In this document: positions 4,561 to 6,057 of the stretch, one piece after another
Layout of the letters: each line of letters starts with the position of its first letter
How positions within the stretch are numbered: the first letter of the stretch is position 1
Assembly (NCBI GenBank): GCA_000002435.2
Contig: CM018789.1
Source: Giardia intestinalis
Lineage: Eukaryota
Strand: one strand, 5' to 3'
DNA length: 64,000 bases
Made by a program: the position numbers and the translations under genes
Notes under the pieces: model-generated
What the model was told of the DNA's origin: nothing
The model's database searches: none
Seen by the model: only the letters and a program-made list of their open reading frames with translations

Positions 4561-6057
4561 ATGTGGATATTTGTGGCTTTAGCACTTGCTTTATCGAATA
4601 CACCCGTGCGCTGCCTTGAGGATCAGTATTATGGGCTATGGAGTTTTACGCTATCGCGCCAATTTGAAGTTACTACGGACACTCTCGAGTGCGAAACGTC
4701 TATCCCGAAAGACGGAGACAAGATTTATTTGACCCTCCTGCCAAAGGGTATTGCGTACACAAGTGGAGGTCGTGCAGGGCGGTGGAGCCCCGTGTACATG
4801 GCTGGTGTCGATATCCTAATCGAAGGCATGCGTTATTTTTTCCTAAGTAAGACAGTCACAATATCGTCTGAGGGACACGCAAAGACAGTGTCCATCTGTA
4901 GCGAAAGCCAACCAGGGCATGGCTGGGCCCGCCAAGATGGTATAAAGAGCAGATATCAGAATTGTTTATATGCTGCTCTGATACAGCCCTTGGTTCCAAA
5001 CGCAACAAATATTAATAGTCAGGACCTCACGCGGCTACATATGTACGCTCCTGCGAGTGATTATGGGTCCCCACAGGGCTTTGACATGCACTACGGAGAC
5101 CCGCCCCCTGCGGCCTGGTCGTGGGGGGACGTCGGCGGGGCCTCGTTCCTCCCGGCCGCGCCGCCCGCCTCCCCCGGCCGGGGGTGCAACAGCAGCTACG
5201 TGGAGGCGGCGCTGGCGGCCATGATGGCGCGCGTGATGGTCGCGAGCAACCGGACAGACCCGCTCGGGCAGCAGACGTTCCTCTCCGCCCGCCACGTCCT
5301 CGACTGCAGCCAGTACGGCCAGGGCTGCGCGGGTGGCTATTTTGAAGGGGTGGGATTGTTTGCAGAAACCTATGGTATCTTAACCACCGATGCTTATCCT
5401 GCCAGGCCCGGTGATAATGTACGATATTGTTCAGTGCCTGCCCAAGCCTCACGTCGATATTTTTTCACAAATTATTACCCAATTGGAGGATATTTGGGAG
5501 CCGTCACATCGCCGTCAGAGATAATGTGGGAAATTTACCGCAATGGTCCTGTTATAGCAGGAATTAAGCCTAACAGTGATTGGTACTCTTGCAAGCACAC
5601 CACAGAAGAGGATTTTCTGCCCTCTTCTTATCCCACCACAAGCACAGGCTTCCCAAACAGACGATACTTCTATGCAGATGTATCCTACGGTGTAGTCATT
5701 ATCGGCTGGGGTACAGATGAAATTAATGGTGATTACTGGTTAGTCCTCGATCCACTCTCCACCAGAAAAAGCAGCTGTCCAGATAGGATCCGGAAGATTG
5801 CACGGGGCATCAATGCATTTAACATAGAGAGTTATGTTGGAGGGGCAAACTGGGTGCCTCTGCCGGACCTTCTTACTACGCATCCAAACAAATTGGTCAT
5901 TCAGCAAACATTTTTAATCTGCCTCTTTGTGGCAGATATTGTTTCCGCAGCGGTTTCTATTCTGTCGGTAATTCTAGTATGTAGTGTTATTAAGAAAAGA
6001 AAAACATTGAGCGTGAGCACCTCTTCGTGTCTAATGATGTCTGACCATGCATTATAG
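4561..6057 (+). CDS. Papain-family (C1, cathepsin-B-like) peptidase homolog with catalytic Cys and His replaced; N-terminal signal peptide and C-terminal TM anchor
   Basis: The ORF-track start at 4537 is TTG. The first ATG is at 4561 and gives a clean signal peptide (MWIFVALALALSNTPVRC). Papain-like landmarks: GCNSSYVEAALAAM aligns with QGxCGSCWAF with Ser at the Cys position, GCAGGYFEG aligns with GCNGG, and YGVVIIGWG...YWLVLD aligns with the His-loop and W-loop with Tyr at the His position. Hydrophobic C-terminal segment LICLFVADIVSAAVSILSVILVCSVI. The core is encoded by a GC-rich patch at 5090-5340. Confidence 0.55.
   Translation: MWIFVALALALSNTPVRCLEDQYYGLWSFTLSRQFEVTTDTLECETSIPKDGDKIYLTLLPKGIAYTSGGRAGRWSPVYMAGVDILIEGMRYFFLSKTVTISSEGHAKTVSICSESQPGHGWARQDGIKSRYQNCLYAALIQPLVPNATNINSQDLTRLHMYAPASDYGSPQGFDMHYGDPPPAAWSWGDVGGASFLPAAPPASPGRGCNSSYVEAALAAMMARVMVASNRTDPLGQQTFLSARHVLDCSQYGQGCAGGYFEGVGLFAETYGILTTDAYPARPGDNVRYCSVPAQASRRYFFTNYYPIGGYLGAVTSPSEIMWEIYRNGPVIAGIKPNSDWYSCKHTTEEDFLPSSYPTTSTGFPNRRYFYADVSYGVVIIGWGTDEINGDYWLVLDPLSTRKSSCPDRIRKIARGINAFNIESYVGGANWVPLPDLLTTHPNKLVIQQTFLICLFVADIVSAAVSILSVILVCSVIKKRKTLSVSTSSCLMMSDHAL

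Follow-up and report, generated by a model that had tools for sequence, protein, structure and literature searches.

Papain-fold homologs in which the catalytic Cys is changed to Ser are known from Plasmodium SERA5 and sponge silicatein, where they are kept under selection and the catalytic His is retained. In dipeptidyl-peptidase I (DPPI, cathepsin C), a papain-like peptidase that forms oligomers via its exclusion domain, the Asp1 at the mature N-terminus binds the amino group of the substrate. A survey of DPPI evolution published in 2022 listed only two Giardia paralogs, both with an intact Cys-His dyad (PMC8836896), and the experimentally studied member, ESCP, is GL50803_14566, which has a YRPI tail (PMC6115752). 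Here we describe a gene of this family in a 64,000-nucleotide stretch of the Giardia intestinalis genome (contig CM018789.1 of assembly GCA_000002435.2), which we call the window and which belongs to an assemblage A-like G. duodenalis. The gene (positions 4561-6057) shares with mammalian DPPI (1jqp, 3pdf and 1k3b) the plan of an exclusion domain joined to a papain-like domain, as well as the GCxGG and YW..V motifs, and it carries a short GC-rich patch. It differs from SERA5 and silicatein in that the catalytic His is also lost.

GC enrichment accompanied by concerted evolution is a feature of mammalian histone and Hsp70 paralogs. For ribosomal DNA (rDNA) under concerted evolution, the elevated GC is likewise confined to the exchanged segment, as far as the work of Escobar et al. 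2011 is cited in PMC10123126. Unlike those GC-enriched repeats, the GC-rich patch described here corresponds to a tract of only 239 bp, which exists as an inverted pair inside two otherwise saturated genes. It also lies in a diplomonad, a group in which GC-biased gene conversion (gBGC) has so far been merely suggested, for rDNA. Recombination between two Giardia DPPI precursor genes, GL50803_28651 and GL50803_22553, giving rise to hybrid proteases, was reported by Franzen et al. 2009, with PCR confirming that isolate GS contains the parental as well as the hybrid arrangement (PMC2723961). Neither the GC patch nor concerted evolution is mentioned in that report (PMC2723961).

Our analyses led us to conclude that the window gene probably encodes a dead but maintained cathepsin C pseudoenzyme that carries a GC-biased conversion tract. 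Papain-fold pseudoproteases and GC-enriched converting paralogs are already known kinds. We found no description in the literature of a 239-bp inverted conversion tract under concerted evolution across three assemblages, of its coincidence with a patch saturated for GC at third codon positions (GC3), of its slowed silent substitution and the changes that it brings to the peptide, or of a tract carrying a nucleophile substitution and of a conserved Ser-His-Asp variant in the sister genes.

Domain architecture and replaced catalytic positions

The window protein matched the Peptidase_C1 profile of Pfam (PF00112) with 49.7 bits (cut-off 20.7) and the CathepsinC_exc profile (PF08773) with 43.8 bits (cut-off 27; E=3.6e-11), the latter match covering profile positions 1-119 of 121. 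The exclusion domain precedes the C1 domain, an order that places the protein in the cathepsin C/DPPI subfamily (MEROPS C01.070-like). Fifteen C1 chains of the PDB were matched, and the best solved relatives were rat and human DPPI (1jqp and 3pdf; E=5e-23 and 1e-21, respectively). A cathepsin B identity was ruled out, as the cathepsin B chains were matched with E values of only ~1e-3 compared to 1e-23 for DPPI; the scaffold is therefore that of cathepsin C.

The residue equivalences were counted along the printed alignment to human DPPI (3pdf), and this count reproduces the known numbering of DPPI. Compared to the mammalian enzyme, Gln228, Cys234, His381, Asn403 and Trp405 are all replaced in the window protein (Table 1), the Trp405 position being occupied by Leu399 in the PDB alignment. 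Thus the Cys-His dyad of an active C1 peptidase is represented by Ser212 and Tyr376, a combination that is constant in assemblages A, E and B, and Gly206, Asp397 and Leu399 stand at the positions of the oxyanion Gln and of the Asn and Trp that orient the His. The His is kept by the paralog P0003, described below, and by the G. muris ortholog. Other differences from mammalian DPPI are the shorter interdomain linker, the C-terminal transmembrane (TM) anchor and, in assemblage A, an Asn at the putative position of the mature N-terminus. The sequence-only reading that preceded this analysis had proposed a C1 peptidase scaffold with Cys-to-Ser and His-to-Tyr changes, and hence a non-peptidase homolog, perhaps a receptor or binding protein, having a signal peptide and a C-terminal TM anchor. 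The scaffold is supported by PF00112 together with the aligned solved C1 structures, and both substitutions were recovered in the residue alignment to rat and human DPPI. The hydrophobic N-terminus and a single TM segment agree with the proposed topology, and the case for a non-peptidase became stronger than originally stated, because four catalytic positions rather than two are replaced.

Next to these replacements, the gene shows clear signs of maintenance. The orthologs from isolate P15 (assemblage E) and from a B-like genome are 89% and 78% identical to the product of the open reading frame (ORF) at the amino acid level, and all of them are 498 aa long; 78% is also the published protein identity between assemblages A and B (PMC2723961). 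Outside the tract described below, the dN/dS ratio is 0.12 in the A-E comparison and 0.08 in the A-B comparison. As the gene is under such strong purifying selection, we consider it a functional pseudoprotease and not a pseudogene. From its sequence, the window protein is most likely a pseudoenzyme without catalytic activity, of type I membrane topology and exposed to the lumen. Such a protein might bind peptides or serve as a partner subunit in the lumen of the endoplasmic reticulum and peripheral-vacuole system.

We compared the catalytic motifs in a table of 18 family members. The active-type members have the pattern Q..CGSC..H..NSWG. A Giardia Ser-type lineage with the pattern CN[ST]S..H..D is formed by G. 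muris TNJ29347, the Giardia-like homolog P0016 (Logan) and the G. duodenalis paralog P0003. These three share CN[ST]S and the Asp with the window protein but retain the His; the pattern CNSS..Y..D was found in the window gene only. The genes of this lineage are located at 6339-8060 of locus L007 (P0003), 10001-11434 of L008 (TNJ29347) and 6151-7662 of L009 (P0016). These patterns suggest that the Cys-His-Asn triad became Ser-His-Asp in a Giardia-specific lineage, and that within it the window gene would have undergone the further His-to-Tyr change and lost the oxyanion Gln. The Ser-His-Asp residues of P0003, TNJ29347 and P0016 may constitute a catalytic set of the serine type built on a papain fold. 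The locus flags a conserved Ser-His-Asp variant of this fold in Giardia.

The active Giardia paralogs, namely ESCP (GL50803_14566) and the active DPPI proteins (XP_001709718 and XP_001709706), have the same family membership, organism and type I topology as the window protein (PMC6115752, PMC8836896). They keep the Cys, His and Asn, end in a YxxPhi tail and lack the GC patch, whereas the window protein has neither the catalytic residues nor the YxxPhi motif.

A tract shared with an inverted paralog

The GC content of positions 5100-5299 is 0.775, compared to a mean of 0.478 over the window. Measured in 150-bp segments, the maximum is 0.793 against a mean of 0.478 and a standard deviation (SD) of 0.059, i.e. 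a deviation of ~5.4 SD. Inside the patch the GC3 of the gene reaches 0.96, compared to 0.44 in the rest. GC profiles showed the same patch in the E and B orthologs and in the paralog P0003, a protein of 573 aa.

In the codon alignment, P0003 and the window gene are 100% identical at the nucleotide level over positions 5095-5333 and only ~45% identical in the flanks; outside this tract the two proteins share ~42% identity. The longest identical run, 239 nt, is far above those obtained from the shuffled match vector (mean 11 and maximum 20 in 2000 shuffles). The tract is an exact match of 242 bp between the paralogs of assemblage E, and has 3 differences in 239 bp between those of assemblage B, and its boundaries coincide in A, E and B. 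Counted over 237 aligned tract positions, the paralogs match at 237 in A and at 234 in B, and the flanks of the pairs are 43-45% identical. The paralogs therefore differ by 0, 0 and 3 nucleotides within A, E and B, respectively, compared to 13-28 differences between assemblages. Among the 31 variable sites of the tract in the six sequences, 28 split the assemblages with both paralogs alike, three are singletons in B and none split the genes. Consistently, a tree built from the tract clusters by assemblage, while that of the flanks clusters by gene. Paralogs within a lineage are thus closer to each other than orthologs are across lineages, and this relationship is confined to one segment, which is concerted evolution. 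As 28 of the 31 sites are assemblage-specific and none is gene-specific, we concluded that interlocus gene conversion has continued after the assemblages split.

The public contig carrying P0003 shares 2745 bp with the left end of the window at 100% identity in reverse orientation, so that P0003 lies outside the window, at the window-equivalent positions -3593..-5314 on the minus strand. The partner copy of the tract is at -4437..-4195, inverted and ~9.3 kb away, and the two divergent genes have their starts 8.15 kb apart. The same inverted arrangement is present on one contig of isolate P15. No second copy of the tract was found within the 64-kb window, the partner being located just past its left edge. 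A scan of JGI metagenome contigs with the invariant 35-mer of the tract, for more copies or hybrids, gave no match. In G. muris (CM016925.1, L008 10001-14268), a Ser-type and an active-type gene stand in tandem, separated by ~1.2 kb that contain two small ORFs. This differs from the inverted Ser-type pair 8 kb apart seen here, which means that rearrangement and duplication have taken place at the locus since the split of G. muris and G. duodenalis.

The window gene is very probably GL50803_28651, 'Dipeptidyl-peptidase I precursor', with which it was matched by description, and P0003 is probably GL50803_22553. The recombining DPPI gene pair reported in 2009 is thus very probably the pair described here. 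The reported arrangements fit the inverted repeat, because a crossover inside such a repeat yields exactly this inversion. Repeated non-reciprocal exchange between the two inverted arms would keep the arms identical in each lineage, while the remainder of the genes diverged to saturation. Since the position of the nucleophile is inside the tract, both paralogs necessarily have the Ser in common, as well as the loss of the Gln in G. duodenalis. A conversion tract can thus carry an active-site substitution (Cys to Ser) between paralogs. Apart from the exactly shared tract, P0003 differs from the window protein in its longer linker and its tail of ~60 aa.

Origin of the GC enrichment

We consider GC-biased gene conversion the likeliest cause of the GC enrichment. 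In all six genes (two paralogs in each of the three assemblages), the tract has a GC3 of 0.91-0.96 and the flanks one of 0.41-0.45, so that the enrichment is specific for the exchanged segment, and at the right edge the drop in GC falls where the identity ends. The patch is absent where there is no converting partner: neither of the two G. muris paralogs, which have no nucleotide identity in common, is rich in GC at the homologous segment, the homologous segment of P0016 is without the patch, and in the active Giardia paralog with the YRPI tail the surroundings of the CGSC motif have 41-49% GC. Silent substitution is slow in the tract. The dS values of tract and flank are 0.10 and 0.50 in the A-E comparison and 0.16 and 1.98 in the A-B comparison, i.e. 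5-12 times lower in the tract, and the four-fold degenerate sites that changed are 3/45 in the tract against 46/164 in the flank (A-E; Fisher p=0.002) and 8/44 against 77/138 (A-B; p=1e-5). The low dS of the tract therefore favours a fixation bias toward G/C, because silent substitution would not be slowed by neutral concerted evolution on its own.

The encoded peptide is affected as well. The fraction of Gly, Ala, Arg and Pro is 0.42-0.46 in the tract compared to 0.18-0.25 in all twelve other family members, and the otherwise invariant DQ motif ahead of the nucleophile reads SPGR. The dN/dS ratio is 0.34-0.44 in the tract and 0.08-0.12 in the flank. An exchange bias that favours GC could have driven the third codon positions to ~96% GC, and the same bias may have shifted the peptide toward Gly, Ala, Arg and Pro.

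Several points weigh against the combined reading of a maintained pseudoenzyme with a GC-biased tract. With B as the outgroup, the E branch has seven changes from G/C to A/T and none in the opposite direction, and the A branch has none and one, respectively. Recent changes thus display no surplus of A/T-to-G/C substitutions, although these counts come from few sites in a tract that is near GC saturation. Causality could also be reversed, with GC-rich DNA favouring recombination. Regarding the protein, the loss of activity is a prediction from sequence alone, and the AlphaFold2 (AF2) model obtained from a 7-sequence alignment has a confidence score (pLDDT) of 42.5, too poor for inspecting the active site. 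Any role alongside the active cathepsin C paralogs, be it as their binding partner or as a regulator, is speculative. Lastly, the assignment of the window gene to GL50803_28651 follows from the gene description.

Other causes of the patch have to be weighed against biased conversion. The patch encodes the most conserved, N-terminal portion of the C1 domain, so its GC richness might have arisen independently of the paralog from selection on the coding core through codon usage, translation speed or conservation of the active site. This proposal is hardly tenable and already contradicted: the same core has 41-57% GC in G. muris, P0016 and the active Giardia paralog, the tract amino acids are shifted to those with GC-rich codons relative to all relatives with the loss of an otherwise invariant Gln, the dN/dS of the tract exceeds that of the flank (0.43 versus 0.12), and selection on codons would not make every silent site identical between the paralogs. 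A constraint on the nucleotides themselves, imposed by an overlapping functional element such as a structured RNA or an ORF in an alternative frame or antisense, would agree with the low silent-site divergence and with the ORFs of 74-141 aa that run across the patch in other frames. We regard it as very unlikely, since RNA folding matched that of dinucleotide shuffles on both strands (z=0.44 and 0.59) and Rfam gave no match at the gathering threshold or at E<=1. Moreover, two of the six frames contain stops, the other open frames are an arithmetic result of GC3 near 1, and the differences between assemblages fall on all three codon positions. The abrupt change in composition at both edges might point to a foreign or chimeric GC-rich insert in both genes, or to the collapse of a repeat during assembly. 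This is next to impossible and is already contradicted by the data. Along its whole length the tract is homologous to DPPI and aligns with it colinearly, and a foreign or chimeric source is contradicted by its lineage-specific CNSS motif and its clustering with the G. muris ortholog. We could exclude an assembly artefact, because independent assemblies of three assemblages, as well as metagenome and SRA assemblies, agree on the same structure.

Two further proposals accept the tract or the substitutions and interpret them differently. The protein might still be a hydrolase, with Ser212 assisted by a different base. The members of the sister lineage keep a full Ser-His-Asp set and may therefore use the Ser form in catalysis, and strong purifying selection acts over the whole protein. 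We nevertheless hold this to be unlikely, as the His is a Tyr in A, E and B, and neither the oxyanion Gln nor the Trp that follows the Asn position has been kept. It is similarly improbable that the tract is a selectively maintained recombination module, in which crossovers flip the 9.3-kb spacer as in a shufflon-like switch and produce hybrid proteins. Such a switch would swap the 5' halves of the two paralogs (promoter and exclusion domain) against the 3' halves (the half bearing the His or Tyr, the TM segment and the tail). The inverted copies of the tract in divergent genes, the finding of both parental and hybrid arrangements by PCR in isolate GS (PMC2723961), the sharp boundaries that are the same in three assemblages, and the constrained silent sites of the tract are all consistent with it. 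On the other hand, no protein of hybrid length (~522 or 549 aa) occurs among the homologs found, all the assemblies read have the parental arrangement, and inversion is an expected by-product of any recombining inverted repeat. There is also no evidence for regulation or for a dedicated recombinase. If such a switch did exist, different membrane-protein chimeras could be expressed by a cell, or even by each of its two nuclei separately, and it would be a recombinational switch of a kind undescribed for non-antigen genes in diplomonads.

The locus is a compact natural experiment: the 239 bp that are exchanged are unusual in composition, while their own flanks and the homologous segments that have no partner are ordinary. 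The sexuality of Giardia and its recombination have long been debated, and the GC-rich regions of its rDNA and variant-specific surface protein (VSP) genes are unexplained. The locus offers a testable handle on whether gBGC operates in this organism.

These results also bear on what the sequence-only reading had said of the patch. Its estimate of ~75% GC was borne out (77.5% at 5100-5299). It had described the segment as open in all six frames; only four frames are free of stops, as TGA codons at 5222 and 5234 interrupt one plus frame and stops at 5093, 5198 and 5339 one minus frame, and the four open frames follow from the GC3 near 1. The patch was also said to encode exactly the conserved core. 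It does encode the N-terminal third of the catalytic domain, including the Gln and Cys positions, but the part with the His and Asn lies outside. A general tie between GC richness and the conserved core was not supported, because G. muris and the active Giardia paralog have a homologous core without GC enrichment. Among the origins suggested for the patch, gene conversion, which was to be sought by comparison with cathepsin B paralogs, was found in the form of a tract shared with a neighbouring paralog, although the paralogs are of the cathepsin C and not the cathepsin B type. The alternative of a chimeric origin is contradicted by the tract phylogeny and the CNSS motif. The observation was thus partly confirmed and its interpretation partly supported.

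A GC-rich patch as such is not unique in the window, which contains two further GC-rich islands, at 20954-21272 and 32855-34490. Within the former, a stretch of ~250 bp with 75-80% GC (20954-21205) lies directly 3' of a tRNA-Leu gene (21206-21289, minus strand) and before the probable true start of the gene at 18792..~20890 (minus strand). The N-terminus of the corresponding ORF (18792-21353) is probably spurious, because the ORF reads through the tRNA-Leu. This stretch had no match in Rfam at E<=1 and folded no better than its shuffles (z=0.02). The second island (1.6 kb, 68-74% GC) covers the last ~90 codons of an ABC-transporter ORF (30256-33129, plus strand), crosses the gene boundary and spans the whole of a convergent, overlapping ORF for a MavL-like ADP-ribosylhydrolase (33089-34543, minus strand; PF16062, E=4e-138). 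The closest homologs of the latter outside Giardia are arthropod CG2909-like proteins, with 41-51% identity.

Gene features, annotation and neighbourhood

The features of the gene are listed in Table 1. The open frame spans 4537/4561-6057 on the plus strand, and the ATG at 4561 agrees with the start of the 498-aa orthologs. In the PDB alignment, residue 14 of the window protein aligns with residue 2 of the DPPI chain. Asn13 is aligned to Asp1 of the mature DPPI N-terminus, next to the putative signal cleavage site; the E and B orthologs have an Asp one position off. An exhaustive HMMER search found relatives among the diplomonads in G. muris, Spironucleus, Hexamita, Dysnectes and Chilomastix. 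A C-terminal TM segment occurs in nearly all of the diplomonad cathepsin C homologs found, which makes the membrane anchor a trait of the family.

Table 1. Features of the cathepsin C-family gene, in window coordinates
Feature	Position	Strand	Basis
Coding sequence, predicted 498-aa pseudoprotease of the cathepsin C (DPPI) family	4561..6057	+	ORF; Pfam PF08773 and PF00112; orthologs; flank dN/dS 0.08-0.12
Hydrophobic N-terminal signal peptide, ~aa 1-12 (putative cleavage site)	4561..4596	+	MWIFVALALALS ahead of the residue aligned to the mature DPPI N-terminus
Cathepsin C exclusion domain, aa 13-138	4597..4974	+	PF08773; aligned to the exclusion domain of 1jqp/3pdf
GC-rich gene-conversion tract, 239 bp, GC3 0.96	5095..5333	+	100% nucleotide identity to L007 6941-7183 (P0003); flanks ~45%
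Papain-like (C1) domain, aa 183-435	5107..5865	+	phmmer alignment to 1jqp residues 207-436; PF00112
Gly206 at the oxyanion-hole Gln228 of DPPI	5176-5178	+	3pdf alignment and family table; inside the conversion tract
Ser212 (AGC) at the catalytic Cys234	5194-5196	+	CNSSY versus CGSCY; inside the conversion tract
Tyr376 (TAC) at the catalytic His381	5686-5688	+	SYGVVIIGWG versus NHAVLLVGYG
Asp397 (GAT) at Asn403	5749-5751	+	YWLVLDPLS versus YWIVKNSWG
TM anchor, aa 450-477	5908..5991	+	Kyte-Doolittle 19-residue means up to 2.5; helix 442-482 in the poor AF2 model
KKRK and 21-aa cytoplasmic tail, after the TM anchor	5992-6054	+	

For annotators, two names at this locus deserve attention. The window gene cannot encode a cysteine peptidase in spite of its label 'dipeptidyl-peptidase I precursor', a name that is also carried by the P15 ortholog. 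P0003 is named 'Encystation-specific protease' at NCBI and is probably not the studied ESCP. The active-type proteins P0009/P0155 (L010 3001-4647) end in ...QYRPIIA, and P0003 has no such motif; as the YRPI motif of ESCP is missing from P0003, its name is probably a transferred label.

The genes that flank the window gene encode NEK-type kinases with ankyrin repeats. The window also contains the RNase MRP RNA gene of Giardia at 23400-23588 on the plus strand (Rfam RF02472, 239.5 bits), directly downstream of the ORF at 21928-23370 (minus strand).

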